NCBI GenBank assembly: GCA_902385255.1
Contig: CABMEV010000001.1
Coordinates: forward strand, 50,496-82,495
Direction: 5' to 3'
Length of the DNA: 32,000 bases
Source of the DNA: Candidatus Tiddalikarchaeum anstoanum
GTDB lineage: Archaea; Nanobdellota; Nanobdellia; Tiddalikarchaeales; Tiddalikarchaeaceae
In this document: positions 3,200 through 32,000 of the stretch, piece after piece
How the letters are laid out: the number at the start of each line of letters is the position of its first letter
How positions within the stretch are numbered: position 1 is the first letter of the stretch
Notes under the pieces: generated by a model
What the model was told of the DNA's origin: nothing
The model's input: only the letters and a program-made list of their open reading frames with translations
Databases searched by the model: none
Made by a program: the position numbers and the translations under genes

Positions 3200-4474
3200 A
3201 TGAGATATGAAGACTTCATAAACTTAAAATACACCCCTAAAAGTGACGATTTAATCTGTTTATTCAGAATAACACCAACTAATGAGTTTACCTTGAAAGA
3301 AGCAGCGATACGCGTCGCCGCAGAATCAAGCAATGGCACATGGAGCGACTTGAAAGTCCCGGAGCATATTTACGAATTAAGCGCTAAAGCTTATGAAATC
3401 AAAAAAGACTTTGTCAAAATCGCATACCCAGTAGACTTGTTCGAACAAGGAAACATGCCGCAGATTTTGTCATCAATAGCCGGAAACATATTCGGAATGA
3501 AAGCAGTATCAGGCCTCAGGCTTGAAGATGTGAAATTCCCGGAGAAAATTATAAGGAGTTTTAAAGGACCGCAGTACGGCATCGACGGAGTACGTAAAAT
3601 ATTAAAAATAAAAAACAGGCCTATAACTATTACTGTTCCAAAACCAAAAGTAGGATATTATCCTGAAGAGCATGCCAAGATAGCATATGAAGCGTGGACT
3701 GGAGGAGTAGACTTGCTAAAAGATGACGAGAACTTGTCAGACCAGTCATTCAACAGGTTTGAGAAAAGACTAAAACTTTGCATGAAGATGAGGGAAAAAG
3801 CCGAGAAGGAAACGGGCGAAAAAAAAAGCTATCTGATTAATATCACTTCCGAAACTAATGAGATGATAAGGCGCGCCAAAATGGTCAAAGATTATGGCAA
3901 CGAGTATATAATGATAGATACTTTAACTGCAGGCTGGGCAGCAACCCAGACAGTAAGGGACGCTTGCCAGGATTTAAAACTAGCCATGCACGGCCACAGA
4001 GCATTTCATTCAGCATTTGACAGGAACCCTCTTCATGGTTTAAGCATGAAAGTGGTAACCAGCGTTGCAAGGATGCAGGGAATAGACCAGCTGCATATTG
4101 GAGGAATGGGAAAACTTGCAGGCGATGAGGAAGAGGTTGAATCAAATTTTGAAAAGTGCTAATTAGATTCGAACGCTGAAAATGAAACAATGCTGCCGCA
4201 GGAATGGTTCGGCAAGAAGAAGATGCTAAGCATATGCTCAGGAGGGCTTCATGTCGGAATATTAAAACCAGTATTCGACCTCCTTGGAACTAATATTGGA
4301 GTTCAGATAGGAGGAGGCATACACAGCCACCCTGATGGGACTCACGCAGGAGCAATGGCAGTCAGGCAAGCAATCGATGCTTACATGAAAGATATTGCTA
4401 TAGAAGAATACGCGGAGAAGAATAAGGAGCTCAAAAGAGCATTAGACAAGTGGGGAACAAAAGTATACGAATAA
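3200..4474 (+). CDS. rbcL: Form III-type RuBisCO large subunit, interrupted by one in-frame TAA at 4160..4162 (ORF segments 3200..4162 and 4190..4474, same frame)
   Basis: N-terminal YxxFxxLxYxPxxxDLI, PKPKVG (KPK), LLKDDENL, HGHRAFH, GMGKLAGD. After the stop: SGGLHVG and GGGIHSHPDG. Codons 4163..4189 (LDSNAENET) are open in the same frame. Confidence 0.85.
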
Positions 4475-6094: not shown

Positions 6095-7093
6095 GTGGAA
6101 AATAAAAAAACAGTGTTCTCGATATTCACTCTAATTCTGGGTATACTGCTTTTTATAATAACAGGCAGGTTCATCATCATAATACTGACTAGTATTTTCA
6201 TAAGTTTCCTAATCAGGCCGTTGTATAAATTAGTCAAAAAAGCAATCAAAAACAGCACCATAAGCGCAGTAGTGTCCGAACTATTAACACTATCCTTAAT
6301 ATTTTACATAACCTTCTTCGTATTCAACAGTGTATATTATCAGATAAAACTCCTTGGTTCATCATTCATAACTGAGACATTATTCAACGTTAACGAGTCA
6401 TTGTTTAATAACTCTGCAAATCTGGATTTTAACAACTTATTAACACTTGAAACTTTTAACAACTCGCTTAGTTTCCTGCAAAGTGTAATAACCAATACGC
6501 CACTCCTCATACTTGACATCTTCCTAATCATCTTCCTGTCTTATTATTTCATAAAAGACTCTGAATTAATCCAGGATACTATTCTTAACATGATTCCAGC
6601 CAGGCATAAAGAGCCGATAATACGATTTTTAAAAAGGTCAAAGAGCATCAGTGAAGAAATACTTTACAGTTACTTCCTAACTGCATTATTCGTCGGATTA
6701 TTATTGTTCATACTGTTAAACATGCTGAACGTTCATTTCTCGCTTGACTATGCAATCTTTGCAGCTATCGCTTCGTTGTTCCCGATTATAGGCACGTGGA
6801 TAGTGCCTGTCTTTTTGGCAATTTATTTCTTTTTCAGAAGCAATTACTTTGTCGGAGTTATATTATTGATTTACGCAGTCCTCATAGTGTACATAACTAA
6901 TGTTTTCAGGTTTATTATTAAACGAACGCATGAAAAAGTCCACCCTTTGCTTTTCATAATGGGTGTATTCGTCGGATTTTATTCGCTGGGCTTTCTCGGA
7001 TTCCTGACTGGCCCTATAATTTTTGGAATACTGCAAATAGGATTTGAAGAAGTTTTCAGGGAATACCTTAAAAATGCCAAGAAAAAGCCTTAG
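6095..7093 (+). CDS. AI-2E family (PerM/UPF0118) transporter-like membrane protein
   Basis: 332 aa, multi-TM, with a C-terminal G-rich helix region FIMGVFVGFYSLGFLGFLTGPIIFGIL typical of the family. GTG start, TAG stop. Confidence 0.55.
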   Translation: MENKKTVFSIFTLILGILLFIITGRFIIIILTSIFISFLIRPLYKLVKKAIKNSTISAVVSELLTLSLIFYITFFVFNSVYYQIKLLGSSFITETLFNVNESLFNNSANLDFNNLLTLETFNNSLSFLQSVITNTPLLILDIFLIIFLSYYFIKDSELIQDTILNMIPARHKEPIIRFLKRSKSISEEILYSYFLTALFVGLLLFILLNMLNVHFSLDYAIFAAIASLFPIIGTWIVPVFLAIYFFFRSNYFVGVILLIYAVLIVYITNVFRFIIKRTHEKVHPLLFIMGVFVGFYSLGFLGFLTGPIIFGILQIGFEEVFREYLKNAKKKP

Positions 7094-9985: not shown

Positions 9986-10027
9986 TAAGTTTTAAAAAAG
10001 TAGAATTGCCCTCATTATACTAGTTTT

Positions 10028-10144
10028 GGGCGGGTAGCTCAGTCTGGTGGAGCGCTAGTCTTATAAGACTTGCACTAGTACAAAAAGTTTTTGGCTCAAG
10101 TCTGAGTCAACTAGTGGCCGGGAGTTCAAATCTCCCCCTGCCCA
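10028..10144 (+). tRNA. tRNA-Ile (anticodon UAU, 10062..10064) with a 43-nt intron at the canonical 37/38 position (about 10066..10108)
   Basis: Acceptor GGGCGGG/CCTGCCC, D arm GCTC-AGTCTGGTG-GAGC, anticodon stem CTAGT/ACTAG with loop CTTATA|A, T arm GGGAG-TTCAAAT-CTCCC. Intron has internal helix AGACTTG/CAAGTCT. No encoded CCA. Confidence 0.8.
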
Positions 10145-10209
10145 AATTATTTTAAGTAATAATCTATGTAATTATGCCTTTTGCTGAATATTTTTTCTAA
10201 GAATAGATT

Positions 10210-12265: not shown

Positions 12266-12402
12266 AATAACCTTAATATATTCAGTTAATTAGTTTAAAG
12301 TTTATGTTGTACTCGAAAAAGAAATAGACAATTATCGAACTTTAAAAAACTAACTGTTTAAAATAGGTTTAAAAAAATGGGAATTACAGTCTTTACTATA
12401 GT

Positions 12403-13320
12403 ATGAAAGTGCTCGAAGTGAACCATTTCAAAAATATGATTAACGAGACGGTTAAAGTCATCGAGGACAAGAAGGACTACTTAAATTATATAAATGTATA
12501 CCCAGTCAGGGACGGCGACACCGGAAACAATTTATTATCCACATTTAAGAATACAAGATTGTTGAATGAGAAGGCAAACGTCAAGGATTTCCTGATAGAC
12601 CTGAAAAAATTAGTATTAACCGGAGCCAGGGGAAACAGCGGAGTAATAATCTCACAATTCTACAAAGGATTCTGCAACCACCTCATTGGGTCCAAGAATA
12701 TTGGCACTTTCGAATTCGCAAAAGCAATAGAGAACGGCTACTACCAAGCGTACAACTCCGTAAGTAAACCTGCCGAAGGCACAATGCTCAGCGTGTTAAA
12801 AGGAGCAAGCATAGGTGCTATCAAAGTATTAAAGAAAAGCGAATCAGTAATAGATGTATTGGAGAGCTCATTCAAATCAGCGCAAAAATACTTAAAAAAA
12901 ACTGTGAAACAGATTCCCATACTTAACAAGTCAGGTGTTGTAGATGCAGGCGGCTTGGGTGTTGTCTACATGCTCGGCGCATGGATGCGGGCAATAGGAG
13001 TACTGCCCAAATATGACCCTTCAATTAACAACTTGATATTAAAAGAGCCGCTTAGCAGCGGGATCAAAAATAAGTACTGCATATCAGTCTTAATTAAAGA
13101 CTGCAAGCATGAAAAAGAGCTGAAAGACCTTCTTAACTCACTTGGTGACTCATTGGACATAGGGGGAGACATTAATGCAGTCAAAGTTCATATTCACGCC
13201 AATGATTACGAAAACGTTAAGGCTGTATGTTCAGCATTTGGTGAATTATCAAGTTTCGAATATGACAATATGATGGAGCAAAATGAGAAAATTAGAGAAT
13301 ATAAAAATAATAACGGATGA
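12403..13320 (+). CDS. fakA: Fatty-acid kinase FakA-like protein (Dak2/DhaL kinase domain plus central domain; lacks the usual C-terminal domain)
   Basis: INVYPVRDGDTGNNL, GARGNSGVIISQFYKGFC, KPAEGTMLSV, GVVDAGGLGV and GDSLDIGG..VKVHIHA...YDNMMEQNEK line up with staphylococcal FakA residues ~1-330 as I recall that sequence. Confidence 0.8.
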   Translation: MKVLEVNHFKNMINETVKVIEDKKDYLNYINVYPVRDGDTGNNLLSTFKNTRLLNEKANVKDFLIDLKKLVLTGARGNSGVIISQFYKGFCNHLIGSKNIGTFEFAKAIENGYYQAYNSVSKPAEGTMLSVLKGASIGAIKVLKKSESVIDVLESSFKSAQKYLKKTVKQIPILNKSGVVDAGGLGVVYMLGAWMRAIGVLPKYDPSINNLILKEPLSSGIKNKYCISVLIKDCKHEKELKDLLNSLGDSLDIGGDINAVKVHIHANDYENVKAVCSAFGELSSFEYDNMMEQNEKIREYKNNNG

Positions 13321-14104
13321 GACTATTGATTTTTATCCAAGCTTTAATGAAAAAGAAATAGTCGTAATCAAAAACCACTTATTCCTGAACGGCAAAGAAG
13401 TTAGCCTGACAAAAAAAGAATTCTACGAGAAGATAACCGACAAGAAAAATCATTTCACAACAAGCCAGGCAAACCCTGAAGATTTTCTTGAAGTATTCAA
13501 AAAATATTCGGATTATAAAATTATAGTGATAACTGCGACTTCCAAGATGAGCGGCATAAACAACAGCGCAAACATTGCAAAAAAAGAAATGCCAAATAAT
13601 GATATTGCAGTAATAGACTCGGAGTCGTTAAGTGCAGGCCTCTCAATACTGGCAGATTTAGGATTACACCTAATCAAAGAAGGAGAAAGTTATGATAATA
13701 TTGTTAAAAAACTTGAAAACTTAAAACATAAGATAAAACTATTCTTCTTATTGACAAACCTTGACTACCTCGTGTCAAGCGGCAGGGTGAATAAAATAAT
13801 CGGATTCCTTGGAAAAGTAGTCAATATGAAACCCTTATTGGAGATTAAGGAAGGTGTGTTAACCAGCGCAGGAGCAATGATATTATCAAAAGATATGGTT
13901 AACTCTTTTTATGAATTCCTTGAAAATAAAATAAGAAATACGCATAAGATATTTATCATACACAACAACTTGGATGCTGAAATGAGGGCGCTGAAAAGTA
14001 AACTGGGACGAGGATATGACATTGAAATCATAAACTTCTTAAACACGCTTCTTGGCGTTTACAGCGGACCTGAATGCTTGGCAGTAGGATGGGTTGAAGA
14101 ATGA
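13283..14104 (+). CDS. fakB: DegV-family fatty-acid-binding protein (FakB-like)
   Basis: IKIITDETIDF, TTSQANPEDF, ATSKMSGINNSANIA, VIDSESLSAGL, LDYLVSSGRV, KPLLEI, GVYSGPECLAVGW. GGAG lies 5 nt before the ATG. Overlaps fakA by 38 nt. Confidence 0.88.
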   Translation: MRKLENIKIITDETIDFYPSFNEKEIVVIKNHLFLNGKEVSLTKKEFYEKITDKKNHFTTSQANPEDFLEVFKKYSDYKIIVITATSKMSGINNSANIAKKEMPNNDIAVIDSESLSAGLSILADLGLHLIKEGESYDNIVKKLENLKHKIKLFFLLTNLDYLVSSGRVNKIIGFLGKVVNMKPLLEIKEGVLTSAGAMILSKDMVNSFYEFLENKIRNTHKIFIIHNNLDAEMRALKSKLGRGYDIEIINFLNTLLGVYSGPECLAVGWVEE

Positions 14105-14697
14105 CATACGGCATTTTCTTGTCATGCATAATCAGCTACATTTTAGGCAGTTACCCGACTGCTTATTTCATAATCAGGATGTTTGAAAGAAAAAACATAT
14201 TCGAATCAGGTGATAAGAATATGGGCGGAACCAATGGATTAATAATATCCAAATCATATAAAATATTTTTCCTGATAGGACTAGTTGATATCTTAAAATC
14301 TTTTTTCGCAGCAGTAACATCTTACTACATAATTAAAGATTTCTGGCTGGCAGCTTTATTATCCGGGATATTCAGCACTCTTGGCCATAACTACAGCGTA
14401 TTTAAAAATTTCAAGGGAGGAAAAGGTGCGAGCACTAATGCAGGAACATTCTTTTTCATAAATCCATCAATGATGGTTTTATTCCTGCTAAGCATAATGG
14501 TGTTATCATTAAGCAATAAAAAATTAAATTTTACGAATAATGAATTCGTCGAGTCAATATACAGGATGATATTATTTTTAACGCTAACATCACTATTTTT
14601 TCCAGACTTCTTCATTCACGCATTAGTGCTGCAATCATTGTCTGTTTTAAAATACGCAACTGAAGGACAGTTTAGCAAAAAAATTCTAGAGTTTTAG
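14101..14697 (+). CDS. plsY: Acyl-phosphate:glycerol-3-phosphate acyltransferase PlsY
   Basis: YILGSYPTAY, GDKNMGGTN (aligns without gaps to GSGNLGATN), DILKS, LGHNYSVFKNFKGGKGASTNAG. ATGA start/stop overlap with fakB. Confidence 0.85.
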   Translation: MTYGIFLSCIISYILGSYPTAYFIIRMFERKNIFESGDKNMGGTNGLIISKSYKIFFLIGLVDILKSFFAAVTSYYIIKDFWLAALLSGIFSTLGHNYSVFKNFKGGKGASTNAGTFFFINPSMMVLFLLSIMVLSLSNKKLNFTNNEFVESIYRMILFLTLTSLFFPDFFIHALVLQSLSVLKYATEGQFSKKILEF

Positions 14698-14728
14698 CAA
14701 CTTTTAATAATATGGCGCGTTTTTTTTA

Positions 14729-15427
14729 ATGAAAATGATATCTGACCAGATGCAGCCTTTCTCAATGATTTATTACTTATTCTTGTTTTTGCTTATCATA
14801 TTTACTCCAATGCTGATACTCTCGCCGTTATTGCACTTAATCCAGTTAAACTTAGCATTTTTATTCCCGTTCATAATGATAATAGTATACTTACTCGGGG
14901 TCAGTTACGCATTCTTGTTCCTGTTAGAATCATGGCTTATACTGAAAGTTTTATACAACCCTAAGAATAAGGAAGGCGAATTCCCAATAAACTCTACAAA
15001 TCCTGCAGTGATATACTGGGCTTTGAATGAGTTATTGATGCACATGAATGAAAAAATATTTTCAATGCTACTAATACCCATATCAGTTTATTCAGAACTA
15101 ATATTCTTTGTTTTCGGATTAAAAAAAGGAAAACGCATCCAGCTTAACCCGATAAATGACCCTTACCTTACCGAGATAGGTGACAATTTCATGATGGGGC
15201 TTGGAGCATTAATATCAGGCCATCACATAATAGGCGGAAAGATTTACATCAAAAAAATTAAGATAGGAAAAAATGTTACCATAGGTGCGAATGCACTTAT
15301 CAGTCCTGGCGCAGTCATAGAGGATAACGTGGTAGTCGGAGCTAACAGTTTCGTAAAAAAAGATTCAGTGCTCGAGAAATCTTCATTTTATGCCGGAACG
15401 CCTGCAAAATTAATAAAAAAAATCTAA
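14729..15427 (+). CDS. Membrane-anchored hexapeptide-repeat (left-handed beta-helix) acyl/acetyltransferase
   Basis: N-terminal ~130 aa hydrophobic (3-4 TM). C-terminal IGDNFMMGLGALISGHHIIGGKIYI..IGKNVTIGANALISPGAVIEDNVVVGANSFV shows hexapeptide repeats. Confidence 0.65.
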   Translation: MKMISDQMQPFSMIYYLFLFLLIIFTPMLILSPLLHLIQLNLAFLFPFIMIIVYLLGVSYAFLFLLESWLILKVLYNPKNKEGEFPINSTNPAVIYWALNELLMHMNEKIFSMLLIPISVYSELIFFVFGLKKGKRIQLNPINDPYLTEIGDNFMMGLGALISGHHIIGGKIYIKKIKIGKNVTIGANALISPGAVIEDNVVVGANSFVKKDSVLEKSSFYAGTPAKLIKKI

Positions 15428-16425
15428 TACTTGCCCAAGTTTCCAACTTCCTTAATTAAAGGCTTTAATGATTTTGCACCATGGAAGAATATGCTAAAAT
15501 CTCTATACCAGCTCATATTGCATTTATTGCAAGGCATCTTTTTGAAATCTGATGGTTTCAAATCCAGGACGTCGCCGAAACTCTTAGCCAGATGCATGCA
15601 AGGGTAAACCTTGAAATTCCAGGCGACGAATAATGTCAGGTATCCTCCAAGGCAAGGATAAGGAGGTGTTTCTTTCTTAAGATAAGATATTATATTATTC
15701 AATGAGTCAACAGGGTTTACTATCTTAAACTCTTTCTTTAACTTGATGACTTCTTCCAGTGCTTTTATCACCTGAACATTTGTTAATTTTATTGCTTCAC
15801 CGCCAAGAGTGTAAACAGGGGATTCTGAAAACTCCGGATAATTAACTGCGATGGTGTCAAATCCAAGCTCTTCACATTTTTTGAATAATTTTCCAAGACA
15901 ATTATGATTAAAATTAGATATTAAAATTGAAGCTACTGTTTTAATCTTGCGTTTTTTTAATTCAGACACTGCTTTCTTAATATGGTCCAGTAATCCAGGT
16001 ATCTTCCTTGATTCAAACTCCACCTTATTAGTGTAATGGTCAACAGATATCGCCACATAATCCACTTTTGCCCTCTTTAATGCATCAAGCCTTTGCTCAG
16101 TAAAAAGCCTAGCATCCGCGTTTAATATTGACGTAATAATATTCTCCTTCGAACATTCTGCAGCTATCTTTTCAAAATTAGGATGAAGCAAAGGCTCACC
16201 GCCTGTTAAAGTAATAAATCTAACACCCAGCCTTGACAAATGCCTAACTGCCTTAATTGCTTTTTCAGTATCTACTACAACTTTTGGCTGCTGTTTCCAA
16301 ATCGTGCAGAAAGAGCATTGAGCACTGCAGATATTAGTGAGTGCGAATTCACAGACCTTGATTTTATTCGTTAATATACCCTTTATTACAGATAATTTTT
16401 TGCCCATTTCTGTAAACGATTCCAT
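15424..16425 (-). CDS. Radical SAM enzyme with a C-terminal Cys-rich (SPASM/twitch-like) region
   Basis: CSAQCSFCTIW (CxxxCxxC), ITLTGGEPLL; C-terminal PCLGG...YPCMH...MPCNKCNMSW. TAG stop. Confidence 0.75.
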   Translation of the reverse strand: MESFTEMGKKLSVIKGILTNKIKVCEFALTNICSAQCSFCTIWKQQPKVVVDTEKAIKAVRHLSRLGVRFITLTGGEPLLHPNFEKIAAECSKENIITSILNADARLFTEQRLDALKRAKVDYVAISVDHYTNKVEFESRKIPGLLDHIKKAVSELKKRKIKTVASILISNFNHNCLGKLFKKCEELGFDTIAVNYPEFSESPVYTLGGEAIKLTNVQVIKALEEVIKLKKEFKIVNPVDSLNNIISYLKKETPPYPCLGGYLTLFVAWNFKVYPCMHLAKSFGDVLDLKPSDFKKMPCNKCNMSWYRDFSIFFHGAKSLKPLIKEVGNLGKY

Positions 16426-16494
16426 ATTTCATTATAAACTTTTTTGTTTAAAAAAATAAACTTATTTAAATGCGCAGTTCTTTTCATCAAAAAC

Positions 16495-17199
16495 ATGGCA
16501 GTGTTGCTATCTATAATCATACCCTCGCATAATGAGGAAAAATATATTGGTAACACGTTGAGGCACGTGTTAAAACAGACTATGCAGAGGGACAAGTATG
16601 AAATCATTGTAAGTGATGCACACTCAACTGATGCTACATTTAAGGTAGCAAAAAAATATGCTGACAAAGTTTTATTGGCAGACACGCATAATGCTGCAGA
16701 AGGCAGAAATTACGGTGCAAAGTATGCAAAAGGAAAAATTTTGCTGTTCCTTGATGCGGATACATTGCTTGGAAAAGAATCATTAACCAGGATTGAAGAG
16801 TTCATAAACAAAGGTTATGGCGGAGGGACGTTCACACTCTTAGGACAGGAGTCTAATTTCGTGGACAAGTTATCACTTAAAATACTTGAAATTATAGAAA
16901 TATTATCCGCGTATGTTGGAATAGCTTACACTAACGGCAGCTGCACTTTCGTAACCAGAGAAGGATTCGATAAAACCCACGGCTTCAATCCGAAAATAGA
17001 TGTCGGAGAGGATAATGATTTCATAAGACGGGTTTCGAAATTTTATAAGACTGGATTAATCAAGTATTATGCAGAGATAAGCTTAAGGCGTATTCATAGG
17101 AAAGGCTGGATTCCATTATACTGGTTATGGGCGAAGAGTTTCTTTAAATCACTATTTTCAAGGGAGATAAAGAATAAGGAATACTGGGAGGACAGGTAA
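16495..17199 (+). CDS. Family 2 glycosyltransferase
   Basis: LSIIIPSHNEEKYIGNTL...YEIIVSDAHSTDAT...LFLDADT. ATG at 16495 preferred over the upstream TTG at 16444. Confidence 0.8.
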   Translation: MAVLLSIIIPSHNEEKYIGNTLRHVLKQTMQRDKYEIIVSDAHSTDATFKVAKKYADKVLLADTHNAAEGRNYGAKYAKGKILLFLDADTLLGKESLTRIEEFINKGYGGGTFTLLGQESNFVDKLSLKILEIIEILSAYVGIAYTNGSCTFVTREGFDKTHGFNPKIDVGEDNDFIRRVSKFYKTGLIKYYAEISLRRIHRKGWIPLYWLWAKSFFKSLFSREIKNKEYWEDR

Positions 17200-17202
17200 G
17201 TT

Positions 17203-18591
17203 TTGAAAATTGCTTTCTTCACTGATAGTTTCCTGCCGAACACAGATGGTGTTGCAGTCGTAACTGATGAGATTGCACAATACCTGGCCAAGAAAGGCCA
17301 TAAGATAACAATCGTATGCCCCGGCAATACGACTGAGATAGTCAAACAGAGCGGCTATAAAGTCATCAGGATAAAATCTTACAGCATAAAATTGTATGAA
17401 GAGCACAAAGTCTGTTTTAAAACACCAGAGTATCTCGAGCAACTGGATGATTTCTCAAAATATGACTTAATCCATTTGCAGACTAACGTAACACTTGCAT
17501 CAATAGGATTCATGGTCGCCTTAAAATATAATAAGCCGATAAGCTGCACTTTCCATACTAACATCGCTGACTTTGTGACTAGTTTTTTTGACGAGAACGT
17601 ATTGATGGGCAAGAAAAATATAATGTATGACTTAATCGGAAAAAACAAGATAATATTATCCATTTTAAGGAAATTCTCAGACAGCATAATGTGGAAACTA
17701 ACAAGGGATTTCCATAACGCTGTGCCTTCAACGTCCGTCCCGTCACATTATTGCAAGGCGCTCCTGAGGAAGAAGGGAGTAAAGAATGACATATTTGTGA
17801 TTCCAAATCCAGTAAATCCATCGCACAGCGGCCGCGAATATTTCAAGAAATTCCCAGTTAAAGACAAATTCGTACTGCTTCACGTCGGCAGGTTAAGCGT
17901 TGAAAAAAGGGTCAACCTGTTAATAGAAGCCGCAGCGGAACTTAAAGACAAGATTCCTAATCTGCAGATTATTATCTGCAGCGAAGGCCCTATGAGAAGT
18001 TATCTTGAACGAATTGCAAAGAGGAAACACGTGGAAAAAATAGTCAAGTTTACAGGATGGGTTTCAAGGGATGAGTTAAACTTTTTGTACGAGCAGTCAA
18101 GCATAGTGACAGGCTTCGGGCTTTTTGAAACGTTCAATCTCTGCATTGCTGAAGCATTAATTTACGGAAAGCCTGTAGTGGTTAGTGACGCTGGACCTTT
18201 AAGTGAATTCGTCAACAATAATGGTTTTGTGGTTCCTGTTAATAATGAGGAAGTTGTTAAGATATCAGAAAGCATATTAAAATTATACTCTAATAAGTCA
18301 TTGTATAACAAGTATTCATTAAACAGCAGGAAATTAGGCAAGGCTTACAACTATGATGACACCATGACTGTTTTTGAAAATTACCTGATTAATTCGGAAA
18401 AGGCCAATAAGATATTGTTTAAACATTATGTGAATTATATACGATACGTTTCCTCAATAAGTGCTGCTATTAACACGTTATTCTTCACCTTAAGCCTTAA
18501 GTTTAAACAGTTTGATAAGATACAAGAAGCCATGGATGACTTTATAAAAAGTGTCAGTTCCTCACTGCCTAAGTTTAAGAAATCTTTTTAA
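17203..18591 (+). CDS. GT4-family (GT-B fold) glycosyltransferase with a ~80-aa C-terminal extension
   Basis: MKIAFFTDSFLPNTDGV start, HVGRLSVEKR, FETFNLCIAEALIYGKPVVVSD (EX7E-type region). TTG start 4 nt after the GT2 stop. Confidence 0.8.
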   Translation: MKIAFFTDSFLPNTDGVAVVTDEIAQYLAKKGHKITIVCPGNTTEIVKQSGYKVIRIKSYSIKLYEEHKVCFKTPEYLEQLDDFSKYDLIHLQTNVTLASIGFMVALKYNKPISCTFHTNIADFVTSFFDENVLMGKKNIMYDLIGKNKIILSILRKFSDSIMWKLTRDFHNAVPSTSVPSHYCKALLRKKGVKNDIFVIPNPVNPSHSGREYFKKFPVKDKFVLLHVGRLSVEKRVNLLIEAAAELKDKIPNLQIIICSEGPMRSYLERIAKRKHVEKIVKFTGWVSRDELNFLYEQSSIVTGFGLFETFNLCIAEALIYGKPVVVSDAGPLSEFVNNNGFVVPVNNEEVVKISESILKLYSNKSLYNKYSLNSRKLGKAYNYDDTMTVFENYLINSEKANKILFKHYVNYIRYVSSISAAINTLFFTLSLKFKQFDKIQEAMDDFIKSVSSSLPKFKKSF

Positions 18592-23592: not shown

Positions 23593-25060
<1,468 letters not shown>

Positions 25061-25154
25061 TTTATTTTCTTTTTCTCGAGAATTTTTCGAGAAACTGGGA
25101 AAAAGAAATATATACCTTATTTATTTAGATGTGTGTGTAGAAGTGGAAAAAACA

Positions 25155-25176
25155 CTTGCGTACAACATCAACCACT
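25155..25176 (+). other. Pre-16S processing stem, 3' arm
   Basis: Complementary to 23471..23491 (see that feature). Confidence 0.6.
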
Positions 25177-25250
25177 TACTTTTTTATTTTTACAAAACCT
25201 AGCGAGAGCTAGCAAAAACCTTATAAGCATCTTTTTTTAGTTCAATTATT

Positions 25251-26249
25251 ATGTTAAAATCACAGGAAGAATCCGCCTTAGAAAGAGTATTATATACTTT
25301 ATCTTTAGATAGTGATTTTAGTCAAGCTATACGTTCATCAAAAAGTACAGAGTATTTATCTGAAAATCCATATATACTACTTCATTCTATGCCTGCTTTT
25401 AGAGAATCATTTTTTAAAGTATTCCTTGACCAGCAGTACAGAATTTTTTCTAAAGGTGTAGATACAAATGAAGCAGATAAAGATAGAAATTACGCTTATC
25501 ATCTGCTTTCCAGGATTTCAAACATTGAAGAGTTAGCAAAGATGTTAAAATTAGAATTGCCTAAAGAGTATTTCGAAAAAAGAGCAATGTTTTGCAAAGA
25601 GACAAAAACATCAATGATAAGTTTACTGTTTAAAGAGTCAAACTTAGATACACCTAATTGTTCTTTTGGTTTTGAATCTCTTTTTAGCGGATTAAAAGCT
25701 ATTTTTGAAGCAGCAAACACTGCAATTCCTAATCTGGATGATGCACGAAAAGAGACATATAAATTACTTATTCCTAGATTAGAAGAATGTATTAGTACTA
25801 ACTTAGCCAGGAAAAACATGTTTCTTCAAGATATTATTGCATTTTCTTGGGAATTTACTTATTTAAATCATATGCTTAAATATATTGGCGCAAAGATTGA
25901 TGAAAAAGGTATGAAGTTAAGAAATGATGTGTTTATACAAGTAGCGGATGATTTAAAAATTAATCAATCAAAAATTGAGGATATTTATAGACTATCTGCC
26001 ATTTATAACTTATTTACTAAGCTTATTATACAATTAAAACCAGATTTTAATAATGCTGAATTAAAAAATGCATTTTCAAAACTAGTATCAGTTGAAAAAA
26101 ATGAAGTAACTTATGACTGCACATCTAAATTTTATCAAGATTTAGAGATTCTAGCTGAAAATAAGTTTAGTTTAGATACAAGTCTTGACGATGAAACTAA
26201 TGAACTTTTACTCGGCAAAGTAGACAATCTTAAATTTATAAAACAATAA
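25251..26249 (+). CDS. Hypothetical protein (AT-rich, probably helical)
   Basis: 332-aa ORF, no recognisable motif. My hand count of the first 100 nt gives 30 G+C. Confidence 0.5.
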   Translation: MLKSQEESALERVLYTLSLDSDFSQAIRSSKSTEYLSENPYILLHSMPAFRESFFKVFLDQQYRIFSKGVDTNEADKDRNYAYHLLSRISNIEELAKMLKLELPKEYFEKRAMFCKETKTSMISLLFKESNLDTPNCSFGFESLFSGLKAIFEAANTAIPNLDDARKETYKLLIPRLEECISTNLARKNMFLQDIIAFSWEFTYLNHMLKYIGAKIDEKGMKLRNDVFIQVADDLKINQSKIEDIYRLSAIYNLFTKLIIQLKPDFNNAELKNAFSKLVSVEKNEVTYDCTSKFYQDLEILAENKFSLDTSLDDETNELLLGKVDNLKFIKQ

Positions 26250-26300
26250 AAGTTCTAAATCATTATCCTTATAATAGCAAGGATTTCTTTAATTTATTTT

Positions 26301-26660
26301 ATGATATTTTATATTCACAAGCCTATTCAGCTGCGTGTATACGCAAGCAGAAAAAATATTAATAATTATTTTAAGTATAATGTCAGGGAGTTGGAGCGTG
26401 AAGTGCTGGTTCCAAGATGCATTGAGGAAGAATTAATACCCTATAATGACAAAAAAGTCTTAGTGAATGTTATGGGTTTAAACGAAAGAAATATTGAATT
26501 CCTGCTTATTTACGGATACGTATCAAAAGAACGCGTCTTTAGAACTAATGAAGGAGTGGCATTATTTGCCAAAGAGATACCAAAATCAGATATTGAAGGT
26601 GTTAAAAAAGCAGTGCTAAATTATTACAATTTTGAGAAACCTCTATCTTTCATAGACTAG
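26301..26660 (+). CDS. Hypothetical protein
   Basis: 119-aa ORF, no recognisable motif. Confidence 0.4.
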   Translation: MIFYIHKPIQLRVYASRKNINNYFKYNVRELEREVLVPRCIEEELIPYNDKKVLVNVMGLNERNIEFLLIYGYVSKERVFRTNEGVALFAKEIPKSDIEGVKKAVLNYYNFEKPLSFID

Positions 26661-26701
26661 AAAACCTTTTTTAATAATTAATAAGTTAAGTATTCTTTAA
26701 T

Positions 26702-27028
26702 TTGAAAGCGGAAATTGCGTCAAAACCTGAACCTGAAGAGATAATAGTGGATGCTGCAAAGCATAAGAGTCCTTCAAAAAGCGAAGTGAAATCCGACACG
26801 TTCACCCATAATAGAGATAAGGTTATTTCCTTTCTAAGGATTTTACTGCTCACAATGCTGTTTATAGTTGTTATTTTCTCATTGTTAATAACTAAGATGT
26901 TATTCTCGCCTAATCCTAATCCATGGGTACTCTTTGGCATGATAGCAGTAATGGTATTGCCAACAATATTCGTAATGGCCTTCCTGTTCAGGTTTTTAGT
27001 GAATTATATGGGCATGAAGAAGGATTAA
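26702..27028 (+). CDS. Hypothetical membrane protein (2 TM), TTG start
   Basis: 108-aa ORF with a charged N-terminus and two hydrophobic helices. Confidence 0.4.
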   Translation: MKAEIASKPEPEEIIVDAAKHKSPSKSEVKSDTFTHNRDKVISFLRILLLTMLFIVVIFSLLITKMLFSPNPNPWVLFGMIAVMVLPTIFVMAFLFRFLVNYMGMKKD

Positions 27029-27681
27029 AGAGGAATGGAAATTAGAACTTTTTTTTAGCAGAGCAGCAACACATTTTTTTTGAACTAAGTTTGAGTAGTT
27101 CTTTGTTTATCGCGTAGTTGCGAATCTTTTTCGCTGGATGCTTTTTTAAGCTCTTTTTCTCCATTCCTCCTTAACTCTTTTTTTTGGGTCCATGTAATTA
27201 AAAAATAAAAAATTAAAAAATGTTAAATTTTTTTAGTTGAGTTGAAAAATAAAATAAGTGCAATTTTAGCATAGTTAGTTTTTCGTTTTAGTACAGAGCA
27301 AGACAGTAATTAAGCAAGTGTCGCTTTTGACTTGGGTCCCAAACAATTTCAGGGGACTGGTCGTTTTCGATTACATTTTTTTTCTTGGATTTACTAATCT
27401 AAACTAGTCATGCTGTTCTTTAATTGCAAATATTTTATTTTTTTAAAACAACCCTCGAGAAATTCTTAGAAATTTTGTGCTTTCATCGGGTTAGTATCTT
27501 GAAAAACATGATGTTATGGCGCCTGCTACTTTAATGAGCCATACACATACGTGATTCAAGTTATTAACCACAACTTAAAAGTTAAACGCTAGTTATATAA
27601 AAAACCTTCGAAGTAATATATCGAGTCACTAAATAGTTATTAAAAATGTTTATATACGTTAATCCTTTTTGCATCTAAAAT

Positions 27682-28971
27682 ATGCACCTCGAAAACTTGC
27701 TGAAGAAGGTTACTACGAAAAAGTTAATCTCATTTTATAATATTGTTGAGAAATTAAAAACTACTATGAGGTATGATAACCAGGAGGGTATTGCTGACTC
27801 TGTTGCTGACCATTCTTTCAGGCTGGGTGTCATGGCATACTTAGTTGCCGAGCATTATAACCTTGATATTGACAAGACTAAAGCGGTTGATTTGGCTTTA
27901 ATTCATGATATGGGCGAGTACTTGCATGGTGATGTGGACCAGAGAAAGATAAGGGAGGGAGTGGTTTCGAAGGATGATAAGGAGAAGCTTGAAGAGGAAG
28001 GTTTAAATGAGTTAAAAAAAGCTCTTCCAAGGACTATGCGTAATTATCTGTCGAATTTATGGGAAGAATATAATTCTTTGTCAACTCCTGAGTCAAAGTA
28101 TATTAAGGCGTTGGATAAGTTGGAGAGTATGCTTCGCATATCCAACAAGGGGTATAAAGTGTTTATGCCTTCATTCACTGGCGAGAATGATGGCGCCCAA
28201 GCGAAGCTGATAAATTACGCGGATAATGCTGTCCGCTCATATCCACCTCTTGCCTGTTTGAATTCTATTGTTAAGAATAGGATTAAGTCAGAGTTTGACA
28301 AAGTGGGTTTTTCGTGGCCTAGTTCCTGCAATGAATTCCTGGATTCCGGATGCTCTGATGATTTGGTGCAGATTGTTTCCTTCCTTGATACTATTGAGAA
28401 TTTAAAGTGCGAGCTTAGGTATGGCAAGGTTAAGACTAGTATGAGCGAGTCTGTTGCCGGCCACATGTTCAAGCTTGCAGTTATGACTTTCAGTTTCGCT
28501 AAGCAGTACGATTTGAAGCTTGATGTTTATCATGCGTTAAAGCTTGCTTTAGTTCATGACTTGGGTGAGTGTTTCGAGGGTGATATTCCTGCTGCTGACG
28601 TCCACTTGGGTGAGATTTCCAAGGAGGAGAAGTTCTCTATTGAAGAACGCGGTTTTAAAAAACTCTGAGGGTTATTGCCTGAGAATTTAGGCACTGATAT
28701 TTTAGATTTATGGAAGGAGTATGAGGTCGGGGCGACGATTGAGTCGCAGTACGTTAACGCATTGGATAAATTGGAGGCCCAGCTTCATGTCTGCAGCGTT
28801 GGGGAACATCGTTTATTGAAGAGTTACAGTCTAACTCCTGTTTATGCTGACAAGGCAGTTCTTAGGCTTAATATATTTAAGGATATGCTGCAGAGTATTA
28901 AGATTACTATGAGGGCGCAGTTTGAGAATGAAGGTTTAGAGTGGAAGAAGGATTATAACCTGTTTATGTAA
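27682..28971 (+). CDS. Tandem-duplicated YfbR-like HD-domain phosphohydrolase (5'-nucleotidase-like), interrupted by one in-frame TGA at 28666..28668 (ORF segments 27682..28668 and 28675..28971, same frame)
   Basis: Repeat 1: ADHSFRLGVMAYL...LIHDMGEYLHGDV...YIKALDKLES. Repeat 2: AGHMFKLAVMTF...LVHDLGECFEGDI...*...YVNALDKLEA. Confidence 0.75.
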
Positions 28972-29360
28972 TTGTTTTGTTTTAATTCCCTGTATTGCCT
29001 GTACCACTCGTCAACTCTTTTGCAGTCCAGTGTCGGGTTCATCTCAATGTGTGGTTTTAATGCTCCGCTGAATGTTTTTGGGATGTGTAATAATTCATGT
29101 ATTAATACTTTAACTTTGTCATCTTCGTTCAGGTTCAAGTATTTTGAGTATAATAATTCTATTACATATTTTGGGCTGCTGTTGAATGCTGCTGTGAAGA
29201 TTCTTGGAGTGCTCCATATCCTGGCGAGTGCTCTGCTTGTGCTGTTTTTTGAGAATACGCATCTTACGAATTCGGTGTTGATGTGGTCCCAGCCTAGTGT
29301 TTCAACCAAGTCTTTCATCTTTTGTTCTGCTTCATCTGCGCGTATAAAATCAAGATTCAT
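28953..29360 (-). CDS. Small predicted zinc metallopeptidase (HExxH)
   Basis: 135 aa with ARIWSTPRIF...YVIELL...VLIHELLHIP. Resembles the archaeal predicted-metallopeptidase family. Confidence 0.55.
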   Translation of the reverse strand: MNLDFIRADEAEQKMKDLVETLGWDHINTEFVRCVFSKNSTSRALARIWSTPRIFTAAFNSSPKYVIELLYSKYLNLNEDDKVKVLIHELLHIPKTFSGALKPHIEMNPTLDCKRVDEWYRQYRELKQNNYINRL

Positions 29361-29454
29361 TACTGTTAAAGGTTTATCAGCTTCTCTTTTTAAATTAATA
29401 TATCTTAAATTGATAATCTTTTTAAACCGCTCAGTCTCTAAATTATTTTATTCC

Positions 29455-29526
29455 GGGCTGGTAGCTCAGTAGTAGAGCGCCGCATTTGCAATGCGGAGGT
29501 CCAGGGTTCGAATCCCTGCCAGTCCA
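29455..29526 (+). tRNA. tRNA-Ala (anticodon UGC)
   Basis: 72 nt. Acceptor GGGCTGG/CCAGTCC with G3:U70, anticodon arm CCGCA-TTTGCAA-TGCGG, T arm CAGGG-TTCGAAT-CCCTG. Confidence 0.9.
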
Positions 29527-30920
29527 TTAAAAACTATTTAAAGACATTTATTTCTTAATTCTTAAATGGTTAATCAAAAAATTTATACTTTAACTAATGG
29601 GTTATTAGTAGGATTAGAGAAAGATGATTCTAAAATAGTGTCAGTTAAGTTAATTTTGAATACAGGTTTGTTAGATGAACTTCCTGGAGATGAAGGAATA
29701 TCACATTATGTTGAACATATGATAATTAGAGGGGGGTCCAAAAAATATACACAAACAAAGTGTGATGAAATTAATCGTTCATTTACTTATAATGCTACTA
29801 CTTATTCTGATAAAACTGAATATATAGGTTCGTTCTTAGCAGAAGATACAAATCTTTTTATAGATTACTTATCAGATACAGTCTTTAATCCAATATTTGA
29901 TAATAATAAATTAGAAGAGGAACGTAAAAGAATATTACAAGAAATTTCTGATAAAAAGGGAGATTATGTTTTTAAAGATTTTAAGTTATTTTATGATGAA
30001 CTTTTTGGAAAATATGCAAATCATAATTATGACGCATCACTTGAAAAATCAGTAATTTCTTCAGCTACTGTTAAACAACTTAAAAAATTTCACAAAAATA
30101 ATTATTTACCTGGAAATAGTAAATTAATAATTAAAGGAGACTTCCCAGATAATATTGAAGACTTAATAATAACTAATTTTGGAGACTTAAAAGGCAGTAA
30201 AAAAAAGATTATTCACCAAACTCCTCAAAATATAAATGGACCTAGAATAATTCATACTAGAGCTACCGAAACTGAAAGTTTAGTTATAAAAATAGGTATT
30301 CCTATATATTCAGATAAAAAAGAGGAAAAAACATTAATAGATCTAATTTCATACATTTTAGGAGGAGCATATAATTTTGAATCGGAATTATTTAATTCTT
30401 TAAGTTTAAAAAAAGGTTTAGTATATTCTATTAATGTTAATTATAATAATAACTGTATTTTTATAAATTGCAGAACAAATCCTAATAATAAAGAAGAAAC
30501 AATTGATGCAATATTTTCATCTTTTGAGGATATTAGAACAAAATTAATACCTGAAGACAAACTTAATCATATTAAGAAAAAGGCTAAATATGGAATTTTA
30601 TTAATTAATGAATTGAGTAAACATAGTTTTGAAGGATTAGAAGACAAAATTAATGGAGATAATTTTGATGAAAACATAGATATTATTAATAATGTAACAC
30701 CTGAAAATATAAAAGAAACTGCAATAAAATTCCTTCCTGAAAATAAGAATGGTAATTATGTAATGTTATTAAAAGACCCATTAAAAGAATCAGAAACTAA
30801 TCAATCTGATTATACAATTTAAGCTTAATATTTTTTATTTTAGAATAGTAACTCATTTAATGAAATTTAATCAATTTATCTGATTTTTTTAATGTTAGGA
30901 TTGAGCAGCTTCCGAGGCTT
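29527..30920. mobile_element. Possible remnant of a tRNA-Ala-targeted insertion (bounded by the tRNA 3' end and its 17-nt duplicate); no integrase present
   Basis: Exact repeat GAATCCCTGCCAGTCCA at 29510..29526 and 30921..30937. The enclosed gene is visibly AT-richer: my hand count of its first 100 nt gives 24 G+C. Confidence 0.3.
29566..30822 (+). CDS. M16 (pitrilysin) family zinc peptidase-like protein
   Basis: Inverted zinc motif HYVEH (HxxEH) near residue 47, and LEEERKRILQEI about 70 aa downstream. 418 aa, the typical two-lobed M16 size. Confidence 0.7.
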   Translation: MVNQKIYTLTNGLLVGLEKDDSKIVSVKLILNTGLLDELPGDEGISHYVEHMIIRGGSKKYTQTKCDEINRSFTYNATTYSDKTEYIGSFLAEDTNLFIDYLSDTVFNPIFDNNKLEEERKRILQEISDKKGDYVFKDFKLFYDELFGKYANHNYDASLEKSVISSATVKQLKKFHKNNYLPGNSKLIIKGDFPDNIEDLIITNFGDLKGSKKKIIHQTPQNINGPRIIHTRATETESLVIKIGIPIYSDKKEEKTLIDLISYILGGAYNFESELFNSLSLKKGLVYSINVNYNNNCIFINCRTNPNNKEETIDAIFSSFEDIRTKLIPEDKLNHIKKKAKYGILLINELSKHSFEGLEDKINGDNFDENIDIINNVTPENIKETAIKFLPENKNGNYVMLLKDPLKESETNQSDYTI

Positions 30921-30937
30921 GAATCCCTGCCAGTCCA
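30921..30937 (+). repeat. Direct repeat of the tRNA-Ala 3' end (att-like)
   Basis: 17/17 identity with 29510..29526. The preceding ~17 nt (TTCCGAGGCTT...) resemble the T arm only loosely: one T-stem mismatch and a non-canonical T loop CTTGAAT. Confidence 0.7.
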
Positions 30938-31206
30938 AATCATTTATTTATTAAATAGGATTAATGCTCCTGGTGAAGTGGAACAAATAAGTTTTAAAGG
31001 TATTAATACTAAGTTAAAGAAAGGAGGATTGTTTTAATTATGGTATTCAAAAAGAAAGAAAAGAAAGAAAAGAAATAATTTTAATCTATACTATTGTTAA
31101 TTTTTATTATTGTAAGTATTCATTTGCAAGTAAGTACTATCCTATAATTTAAAGGTGCAGATGAATTCTTTATATTTTAAAGAATCAGATAACTAAATAT
31201 TACTGT

Positions 31207-31446
31207 TTAATTCTTTTTTTGAATATAATTCTCTGCTTCTGAATAAGTAATATTAAGCGAGCAGCTTAATTCCTTGCATAAAAAGTCTTTATACTTGACG
31301 TTCAGCTTATCCTTATTGCCTTTATAGAATTCTATAAAAGTAACCTTGAATATGTCCATTTTTTTGGTTAATTTATCCTTATTATTTGAAGCATCTAATA
31401 CTAATTCCTCTAATCTGCTTATTTCAACATTAGCTAATCCGTTCAT
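31207..31446 (-). CDS. Hypothetical protein
   Basis: 79-aa ORF, no recognisable motif. Confidence 0.35.
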   Translation of the reverse strand: MNGLANVEISRLEELVLDASNNKDKLTKKMDIFKVTFIEFYKGNKDKLNVKYKDFLCKELSCSLNITYSEAENYIQKKN

Positions 31447-31567
31447 TCAAAAAATAATTCGAAAATTTAATAGTTATAAGGCTTTTCTTTAAACAATACA
31501 CATTTAATACATTATATAAAAAGCAACACTTTTAATGTAAAAAAGTTAGTAAAATTAACGAATTTTT

Positions 31568-32000
31568 ATGAACAACGCCGTTGAATTAGTGCATTATCAC
31601 ACAGAATGGTGCGATTCAAGTGTAAGCAACCTCAACCAAGTCTTGGTCAAAGCCTGCTGCGAGGCAGAAAAAAACAGCGCCCAAAAATATAAGAATTATT
31701 TTCTGAATAACTTCAAAGAGCTTAACTTAGTGCTTGACTTATTATATGATGAACTGCTCGACGCTTACATTAAGGGAGAAAGCAGTAATTCTTACTATCT
31801 TGAACGCTTATTTGAGGAAGCAGTCAAGAAGTACGAGTTATGTCTTGACAACCCAAAAGAAATAATTAAAAAATCGAAAAAAGAACTGCACTCATCAATG
31901 CTATGGAAGTACTCTAAAATGCTTGACTTAGTTGACGAATACAAAAAAGAAAAAATAGACATGGGCTTCCTGTTAAATATGAAATCATTCTTCGAATCCC
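31568..32000 (+). CDS. Hypothetical protein, 5' partial (open to window end; absent from ORF track because no stop is reached)
   Basis: ATG at 31568, then 144 open codons: MNNAVELVHYHTEWCDSSVSNLNQVLVKACCEAEKNSAQKYKNYF... Confidence 0.45.
   Translation, partial: MNNAVELVHYHTEWCDSSVSNLNQVLVKACCEAEKNSAQKYKNYFLNNFKELNLVLDLLYDELLDAYIKGESSNSYYLERLFEEAVKKYELCLDNPKEIIKKSKKELHSSMLWKYSKMLDLVDEYKKEKIDMGFLLNMKSFFES

Follow-up and report, generated by a model that had tools for sequence, protein, structure and literature searches.

A predicted short fatty-acid kinase, DegV and PlsY-like operon in a DPANN archaeon and its possible role in fatty-acid salvage

Gene content of the locus

We analysed a 32,000-nucleotide stretch of DNA (the window) from Candidatus Tiddalikarchaeum anstoanum, a tiny, host-dependent DPANN archaeon known from a 1.16-Mb metagenome-assembled genome (MAG) from Australian groundwater and placed in the Nanoarchaeota, order Tiddalikarchaeales (= CG07-land). 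The window carries three coupled genes, for a short kinase of the FakA family, a protein of the DegV/FakB family and a membrane protein of PlsY fold, which a preliminary description, made from the letters of the sequence, had read as an operon working as in Firmicutes and pointing to a fatty-acid-scavenging lipid route. The paper describing Ca. Tiddalikarchaeum anstoanum makes no mention of lipids, fatty acids, PlsY or DegV. The genes and candidate signals at the locus are as follows.

12369..12378, + strand: candidate TATA-like box, A/T-rich 'tttaaaaaaa'
12403-13320, + strand: short FakA gene, 305 amino acids (Pfam Dak2 and FakA-like_M)
13283-14104, + strand: DegV/FakB-type gene, 273 amino acids (Pfam DegV)
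14101-14697, + strand: PlsY-fold gene ('type b'), 198 amino acids (Pfam G3P_acyltransf)
14719..14726, + strand: run of eight T residues between the PlsY stop codon and the hexapeptide gene
14729-15427, + strand: hexapeptide transferase gene, 232 amino acids (Pfam Hexapep, 2e-9)

The tight coupling of the three genes was confirmed: the open reading frames (ORFs) of the kinase and DegV overlap by 38 nucleotides (nt), the DegV stop and the PlsY start overlap as ATGA, and a GGAG Shine-Dalgarno-like motif lies 5 nt upstream of the DegV gene. The TATA-like box, located by eye about 25-34 nt 5' of the first ATG, is a possible archaeal promoter giving a short leader or none, and the T8 run, also found by eye, could be an archaeal terminator closing the unit. 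In the related archaeal loci described below the DegV ORF likewise overlaps the FakA ORF, by 20-38 nt (junctions in the window, L001, L005, L007, L013 and L094), and it lies in the +1 frame relative to FakA in six of the seven overlapping loci. All three ORFs scored on the Pfam models of their families. The further statement that each protein carries its family motifs held for the DegV site, but the kinase lacks the FakA_C domain and the PlsY-like protein lacks the residues that clamp glycerol-3-phosphate (G3P).

The kinase ends before the FakB-docking domain

Bacterial FakA proteins are about 530-550 amino acids long and consist of the domains N, M/L and C. The kinase of the window, which is 100% identical to P0001 ('DAK2 domain protein' of Ca. 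Tiddalikarchaeum anstoanum), matched Dak2 (2.1e-29) and FakA-like_M (PF21645, 3.9e-15), but no match to FakA_C (PF13684) was found in it, and the protein stops at residue 305, after the M domain. Its match to TIGR03599 (YloV) covers only positions 1-302 of 530, and it scores under the NCBIfam cutoffs of both TIGR03599 (239 vs 396 bits) and NF038248 (163 vs 975 bits). The short form is not a truncation artefact, because all eleven orthologs have 292-305 amino acids and each has an overlapping DegV gene downstream. A bacterial match of 316 amino acids (L010) comes from a FakA that is divided in two, with N+M on one piece and FakA_C on another.

The Mg/ATP ligands and the catalytic residues of the middle domain of S. 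aureus FakA are listed in a study of that enzyme (PMC9136124). All nine are kept in the window kinase and are invariant in its clade. Asn32, Asp38, Asp40, Thr41, Asn82 and Asp185 of S. aureus FakA correspond to the six Mg/ATP ligands N31, D37, D39, T40, N78 and D181, respectively, which are invariant across 11-12 orthologs, and Cys240, His282 and His284 correspond to C226, H263 and H265, the Cys-His-His set of the middle domain, invariant throughout the short-FakA clade. The same S. aureus study reports that FakB is bound by FakA_C, which also pairs, in a DhaK/DhaL-like manner, with the kinase domain of the other protomer, and that kinase activity is restored by FakA_N together with FakA_L in the absence of FakA_C (PMC9136124). 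Hence the assignment to a FakA-like Dak2 kinase stood as regards the kinase and zinc-finger domains and all nine catalytic residues, and did not as regards the FakA_C domain; a Firmicute-like working of the proteins is not supported in the form proposed, since the FakB-docking domain is absent from this FakA.

The DegV protein

The second protein scored well above the cutoffs of PF02645 (185.8 bits vs 27; 1.4e-54) and TIGR00762 (191 vs 99.7 bits), and it is a full-length DegV (186 bits) and not a FakA_C domain (22 bits). It missed the FakB1 equivalog NF038249 (69.8 bits vs a cutoff of 350), and the solved structures closest to it are the DegV-family entries 2dt8 and 1mgp. The carboxylate-binding residues T60 and S90, together with R168, are present in all eight archaeal DegV copies (8/8), R168 being the counterpart of FakB Arg173, the arginine essential for phosphotransfer. 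The position of the FakB histidine is occupied by tyrosine, and this position also varies among bacterial FakBs. Judged by its family match and its ligand-binding residues, the window DegV is a real FakB-like protein.

A PlsY fold with a different acceptor pocket

The third protein matched PF02660 with 90.5 bits (1.7e-25; cutoff 24.1), while for the TIGR00023 equivalog it reached 91.2 bits of the 137.2 required and aligned only with model positions 5-138 of 196. Its AlphaFold model (mean predicted local distance difference test score, pLDDT, 87.9) could be superimposed over the whole length on Aquifex PlsY 5xj7 with a template-modelling (TM) score of 0.75 over 191 columns, and on the structures 5xj5-5xj8 with TM scores of 0.70-0.76 over 188-195 columns, in agreement with the seven-helix PlsY fold. 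The acyl-phosphate site is kept: Asn37, Thr41, His92 and the GGKG loop (Lys104-Ala107) of the Aquifex enzyme correspond to N40, T44, H96 and G106-G109 in the window protein, all invariant in its subtype.

In Aquifex PlsY, the phosphate of G3P is clamped by Ser35, Arg45, Lys104 and Asn180, and Ser142 and His177 complete the pocket (PMC5700162). Only Lys104 is retained in the window protein, in which Ser35 is replaced by D38, Arg45 by a gap or Ile, His177 by Y185 and Asn180 by E188, and the Ser142 region is not alignable; phmmer, MAFFT and a hidden Markov model (HMM) of canonical PlsY were concordant on these replacements. The Aquifex enzyme is intolerant at the four positions, as S35C retains 4% and S35T 17% of the activity, R45K loses more than 90% and N180D more than 95%, and every substitution of His177 fails (PMC5700162). 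Thus, from the proposal that the third enzyme is PlsY, the fold and the acyl-phosphate site were upheld, and four of the six G3P residues were found replaced. The more specific claim that it acylates sn-glycerol-3-phosphate is not supported as it was put, since each of the replaced residues is one whose mutation severely impairs the Aquifex enzyme (PMC5700162), and from the sequence G3P acylation by this protein cannot be regarded as established.

The type b subtype has, on the other hand, its own set of invariant residues (D38, E148, R155, H173, Q178, K184, Y185 and T187), which argues for an acceptor pocket that was remodelled under selection rather than decayed. Two divergent PlsY subtypes occur in the core archaeal loci, type b being the form of the window, whereas in type a Thr41 is replaced and the C-terminal His is kept. 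Arg45 and the HRxN motif are found in none of the ten PlsY copies of the core loci (0/10), and a canonical PlsY occurs, once each, only in the outlying archaeal loci L009 and L011. Among the best 150 representatives, Thr41, Arg45 or Asn180 is missing from many further PlsY homologs as well, so that loss of the Aquifex clamp alone is no proof of a new substrate. Within the same 150 we observed a group (P0140-P0149, P0153 and P0169) with the motif GSGNxGAMNS[FY][DE], in which Thr41 is replaced by Met and Arg45 by Asp or Glu, and with a C-terminal 'KH' in place of HRxNIxRL, which shows that not all members of the PlsY family have the G3P clamp of the Aquifex enzyme.

Recurrence and phylogeny of the archaeal module

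The same module was found in nine archaeal loci, that is on eight independent contigs beyond the window, and in at least five different archaeal neighbourhoods. The gene orders in the relatives are given below.

L001/L012 and L094: aIF5B, short FakA, DegV, PlsY, PlsY, an unknown gene, oxidoreductase, pyruvate kinase, GpsA
L003: short FakA, DegV, PlsY, HD
L005: ribosomal L13/S9, PlsY, short FakA, DegV, HSP20, TFIIB
L007: PlsY, PlsY, short FakA, DegV, UbiA, RuBisCO
L009: CarS-like, CDP-alcohol transferase, PlsY, PlsY, full-length FakA, DegV
L011: short FakA, DegV, three PlsYs
L013: MCM, RPA, CarS-like, CDP-alcohol transferase, short FakA, DegV, PlsY

Across the loci the module is flanked by archaeal genes (MCM, RPA, aIF5B, TFIIB, L7Ae, S8e, L37ae). 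A PlsY-like gene adjoins the FakA/DegV pair in all nine archaeal loci (9/9), compared with none of the 39 scorable canonical bacterial FakA loci (0/39), and this linkage is selected, far beyond chance. Tandem PlsY paralogs, one to three, are present in L001, L007, L009, L011 and L094. Genes for CarS-like and CDP-alcohol transferase enzymes lie adjacent to the module in L009 and L013, and a bacterial-type GpsA gene lies about 4.5 kb downstream of it in L001 and L094, which ties the module to glycerophospholipid assembly and G3P supply. Neither PlsC nor PlsX was found in the 32-kb window or in the flanks of the nine loci, in agreement with the preliminary description as far as the absence of PlsC from the window is concerned, and no acyl carrier protein (ACP) genes were found in the archaeal module loci. 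Searches of the window for a second PlsY and for homologs of CarS, CDP-alcohol transferase, GpsA and UbiA likewise found none.

The recurrence of the module in nine archaeal loci, which represent at least five different neighbourhoods, excludes an assembly error as the origin of the cluster. The earlier view that the cluster is not a chimeric assembly is supported by this recurrence on eight other archaeal contigs and by the G+C content, which is flat (0.33-0.39) across the Fak/DegV/PlsY genes. Of the archaeal markers named on the same contig, the following were found as well: an archaeal small-subunit (16S) rRNA at 23593-25060 (1401 bits), a weak TFE-alpha match, and an intron-bearing tRNA, listed here.

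10027-10145, + strand: tRNA-Ile(TAT) with a 43-nt intron, found by Rfam and by ARAGORN -i and missed by default ARAGORN

The intron also ascribed to tRNA-Glu was not seen in that gene in the window.

The short FakAs (P0001-P0011) form a single clade with a neighbour-joining bootstrap of 100/100, and a sister position of the full-length archaeal FakA of L009 received a support of only 3-15/100. The archaeal Fak module forms a deep clade of its own, and a bacterial donor for it cannot be named. The sequences suggest that the module has been vertically maintained in a small DPANN clade consisting of Tiddalikarchaeales/CG07-land and neighbouring 'Woesearchaeota/Nanoarchaeota' MAGs. It is rare: short FakA forms about eleven 90%-identity clusters among 5.8 billion proteins, and an alignment-based scan of GTDB found the short-FakA module in three archaeal species representatives, with one further locus in the JGI metagenomes. 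No paper on FakA or a fatty-acid kinase in archaea, or on DPANN together with DegV/FakB, was found in the library searched, which is incomplete and in which DPANN with 'fatty acid kinase' gave a generic mention only. The genes are not commonplace, and a description of them for this lineage was not found in that library.

Comparison with bacterial and archaeal systems

The archaeal proteins belong to the same three families as the FakA/FakB-PlsY systems of the Firmicutes (S. aureus, S. suis, B. subtilis), with which they share the Dak2 ATP-Mg ligands, the Cys-His-His set and the DegV Thr/Ser/Arg residues, as well as the predicted chemistry, in which fatty acid and ATP would give an acyl-phosphate for acyl transfer by a PlsY-fold enzyme. 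They differ from these systems in the missing FakA_C, the FakB-docking domain; in the arrangement as one overlapping operon that includes PlsY, which lay near none of the canonical FakA genes (0/39); in the replaced G3P pocket; in having no PlsX or PlsC at the loci; in the archaeal host; and in that all three proteins miss the NCBIfam equivalog cutoffs for FakA, FakB1 and PlsY.

When we scanned 160 loci with custom HMMs, a third architecture was found and confirmed with Pfam, namely bacterial proteins of about 600 amino acids in which Dak2, FakA_M and a full DegV are fused and FakA_C is absent. They are encoded in Neomarinimicrobiota, Aminicenantes, Acidobacteriota, Bacteroidota and other MAGs (GTDB), the loci including L017-L021, L025, L034, L053 and L074. 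A canonical PlsY gene lies directly downstream of the fusion in 14 of 39 scorable loci, the PlsYs beside the fusions all carry the canonical motifs GSGNAGGTNxFR and HRSNIxR (24/24), and the DegV Ser and Arg are conserved in 63/63 fusions. The fusions thus resemble the archaeal module in combining N, M and a full DegV without FakA_C and in their link to PlsY, but the archaeal module consists of two overlapping ORFs instead of one polypeptide, and its adjacent PlsY is not canonical. Therefore a FakA that lacks FakA_C, is stoichiometrically coupled to DegV and is linked to PlsY is a recurring design, and this supports, by analogy, the idea that DegV takes the place normally occupied by FakA_C. 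We also considered an origin of the archaeal module by fission of such a fusion, and found it unsupported: archaeal and fused sequences group together with a bootstrap of 9/100 in the tree of DegV and of 0/100 in that of N+M, and the archaeal clade lies as far from the fused forms as from the canonical ones (1.55 vs 1.54). The bacterial fusion operon is the nearest analogue of the archaeal module and not a demonstrated ancestor. Fusions in the reverse order, DegV then Dak2, of about 775-785 amino acids and with no FakA_M match, were observed in L095/L096 (7074-9425), L124, L129, L131 and L135, followed by an ORF that matches the PlsY model and lacks every canonical PlsY motif.

Another relevant arrangement is that of the dihydroxyacetone kinase DhaL-DhaK, which likewise combines a nucleotide-binding Dak2 (DhaL) subunit with a separate substrate subunit of the EDD fold, and which provides the docking geometry that we propose for short FakA and DegV. 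The two systems differ in the substrate (dihydroxyacetone vs fatty acid) and in that DhaL has no FakA middle domain; DhaM is absent here, and DhaK is only distantly related to DegV.

Homologs of PlsY and PlsC have been described in MAGs of Asgard archaea, Marine Group II/III and DPANN and read as horizontal transfers from bacteria (Villanueva 2017; Coleman 2019, PMC6431249), and their function 'remains to be elucidated' (PMC6431249). The occurrence of PlsY without PlsX is a noted puzzle in archaea and in bacteria of the Candidate Phyla Radiation (CPR). These reports concern presence or absence and give no acyl-phosphate source, whereas here PlsY is operonic with a predicted fatty-acid kinase. 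Unlike the PlsY homologs of the earlier reports, the PlsY subtype of the window forms only three 50%-identity clusters among 1.84 billion representatives.

Downstream and other genes of the window

The hexapeptide transferase had been suggested, as speculation, to supply a second acylation. This was not borne out, and we rejected the gene as a second acyltransferase: it belongs to a separate trio with a convergent radical S-adenosylmethionine (SAM) gene and a gene for a family 2 glycosyltransferase (GT2), which travels on related DPANN contigs lacking Fak genes.

Window 14729-17199: hexapeptide/radical-SAM/GT2 trio, radical-SAM gene convergent
L092 519-2947: the same trio on a related DPANN contig
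L093 3336-5800: the same trio on a related DPANN contig

The hexapeptide orthologs (47-63% identity) adjoin the same two genes on contigs without Fak or PlsY, one of which is from the same metagenome as L003, whose Fak module is on another contig, and no hexapeptide gene was found beside the module in the other archaeal Fak loci. In NCBIfam, this membrane-anchored left-handed beta-helix (LbH) protein best matches the C-terminal domain of Pls/PosA non-ribosomal peptide synthetases (5e-16), and an LbH paralog (P0293) is present elsewhere in the same genome. The radical-SAM gene of the trio is PTO1314-like and its GT2 gene TIGR04283-like. Further downstream, a family 4 glycosyltransferase (GT4) gene at 17203-18591 (+) has as its best NCBIfam match alpha-monoglucosyl-diacylglycerol synthase (1.5e-28; 100 bits vs a cutoff of 400). 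It may connect the Fak module with glycolipids, but in relatives it is not retained next to the module.

Several other observations concern the rest of the window. A single in-frame TAA at 4160-4162 breaks a form III-like RuBisCO large-subunit gene (3200-4474, +) into two ORFs (3200-4162 and 4190-4474), which share a frame and jointly span the RuBisCO Pfam model; this could be a pseudogene, a sequencing error or a case of stop-codon read-through. In L007, too, the Fak module has a RuBisCO gene as a neighbour. In three loci (window 6095-7093; L001 15696-16637; L092 4215-5198), an AI-2E-family transporter gene lies less than 10 kb from either the Fak module or the trio with the hexapeptide gene, possibly by coincidence. 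The AA-kinase ORF at 1900-2691 was considered as an isopentenyl-phosphate kinase and rejected, being ProB-like. After the 16S gene there is no 23S gene in the remaining 7 kb of the window (region 23593-32000), which holds protein-coding ORFs instead, and a tRNA-Ala lies 4.4 kb downstream of the 16S rRNA; the rRNA genes of Ca. Tiddalikarchaeum anstoanum appear to be unlinked.

Proposed mechanism and alternative explanations

We lean, with modest confidence, towards the view that window positions 12403-14697 form a three-gene operon for salvage of exogenous fatty acids into membrane lipid. The fatty-acid-scavenging lipid role suggested at the outset thus stands as the best reading of what is a genuine operon of bacterial-family Fak, DegV and PlsY genes in a DPANN archaeon. 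In the mechanism that we propose, a free fatty acid would be bound by DegV through the conserved Thr/Ser/Arg carboxylate site and phosphorylated in the DegV-bound form by the FakA without C-terminal domain, giving an acyl-phosphate. Since FakA_C is absent and the two genes are translationally coupled, DegV would dock on the kinase domain itself, in the way that DhaK docks on DhaL and that the DegV domain of the bacterial fusions must do as well. The PlsY-fold membrane enzyme would then move the acyl group from the acyl-phosphate to a membrane-lipid precursor bound in the remodelled pocket, of which a glycerol-phosphate backbone and a lyso-lipid are the most probable. The CarS-like and CDP-alcohol transferase enzymes encoded next to the module in relatives would receive the product. 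The data show the family and fold assignments, the conserved residues, the structure of the operon and its conservation and linkage across loci; from the sequences we infer that the kinase is active without FakA_C and in direct contact with DegV, which acceptor is used, and that the product is a lipid.

Several points weigh against this interpretation. The acceptor pocket of the PlsY-like protein is unlike that of every characterised PlsY, and for this reason the product of the enzyme is not fixed. The window has only the one PlsY-like gene, with no PlsC, GpsA, CarS or CDP-alcohol transferase, and archaeal CarS prefers digeranylgeranylglyceryl phosphate over bacterial phosphatidic acid. Moreover, in the sedimentation experiments with the S. 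aureus proteins, binding of FakB to isolated FakA_N or FakA_L was undetected (PMC9136124), so that direct docking of DegV on the kinase needs features beyond those shown.

The module could instead work by the canonical Firmicute-type route, in which the acyl-phosphate made by FakA/FakB is used by an ordinary sn-glycerol-3-phosphate 1-O-acyltransferase to give lysophosphatidic acid. We consider this rather unlikely. The PlsY-like protein is a PlsY by Pfam and by fold, bacterial-type GpsA is encoded near the module in L001 and L094, the more distant loci L009 and L011 have one canonical PlsY each, and the Aquifex residues may not be universal, many of the best 150 homologs being without Thr41, Arg45 or Asn180; in addition, bacterial PlsY is loose on backbone stereochemistry and uses glycerol-1-phosphate (G1P) and G3P alike in vitro. 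The route is opposed by the replacement of Ser35 by Asp, His177 by Tyr and Asn180 by Glu and the absence of Arg45, positions at which the Aquifex enzyme is intolerant, by the score under the equivalog cutoff (91 vs 137 bits), and by the canonical motifs found in 24/24 PlsYs beside bacterial fusions vs 0/10 of the core archaeal ones. Somewhat more doubtful still is a role in lipid remodelling, with the acyl-phosphate serving to re-acylate scavenged lyso-lipids or an acceptor other than G3P (monoether glycerol phosphate, a glycolipid or an amine), and with paralogs a and b, where both occur, replacing PlsC by successive acylations. Such a role would agree with the lost phosphate clamp and the new clade-invariant residues, which imply selection for a different pocket, with the one to three tandem PlsY paralogs of L001, L007, L009, L011 and L094, with the lack of PlsC, PlsX and ACP genes at the loci, and with the idea that DPANN archaea and CPR bacteria take up and modify lipids, lysolipids being enriched in CPR bacteria. 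It is purely inferential, though; only one paralog is found in the window, the GpsA genes close to the module in two loci point to a supply of free G3P, and the characterised enzymes of the PlsY family are known to acylate glycerol phosphate only.

It is improbable that the module has a non-lipid or decayed function, with the Dak2/DegV pair phosphorylating some other small carboxylate or hydroxyl compound or with PlsY being an inactive relic. The FakA, FakB1 and PlsY equivalog thresholds are all missed and the sequences have strongly diverged from the characterised enzymes, but the FakA-specific middle domain and its Cys-His-His set are conserved, the catalytic and ligand residues are invariant across orthologs with 41-63% identity, indicating purifying selection, and the operon linkage survives rearrangements. 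A bacterial fragment mis-joined into an archaeal contig during assembly or binning is scarcely credible: although the three families are overwhelmingly bacterial, the GC content is continuous across the cluster, the same window includes an archaeal rRNA, a tRNA with an intron and a TFE-like gene, the module lies on eight other contigs beside archaeal MCM, RPA, aIF5B, TFIIB and ribosomal protein genes, and its proteins form a clade apart from all bacterial ones (core bootstrap 100).

Going beyond the salvage operon that we favour, it is conceivable, though rather doubtful, that this DPANN clade builds ester or mixed ether/ester glycerophospholipids without ACP or coenzyme A (CoA). In that case the two-subunit fatty-acid kinase would give the sole acyl donor, PlsY types a and b would carry out the acylations of PlsY and PlsC or acylate G1P or ether-lipid acceptors, and the CarS-like and CDP-alcohol transferases would take the products.

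Implications for archaeal lipids

The module is composed of known families, yet both its kinase and its acyltransferase depart in defining ways from their bacterial counterparts. Since 2017 the debate on the lipid divide and on how eukaryotic membranes arose has drawn on the archaeal PlsY/PlsC homologs, and archaeal PlsY has so far been without an identified acyl-phosphate source, because PlsX is absent. The operon described here links an archaeal PlsY-family enzyme to a probable acyl-phosphate generator in a concrete, expressible three-protein system, and so allows a direct test of whether fatty acids are present in the membranes of some DPANN archaea, and on which backbone. It also raises the question whether FakA can function without its FakB-docking domain, an arrangement that, by analogy, may be an ancestral-like DhaL/DhaK one, also seen in fused form in several bacterial phyla, and the question which acceptor is used by a PlsY whose glycerol-phosphate clamp is replaced. 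If the acceptor is ordinary G3P, the module would encode a salvage pathway that is diverged yet ordinary, though found in an unusual host. If the ester-lipid route without ACP or CoA is true, it would mean that archaea of this clade cross the 'lipid divide' in nature and that the PlsY family includes a new specificity for the acceptor.

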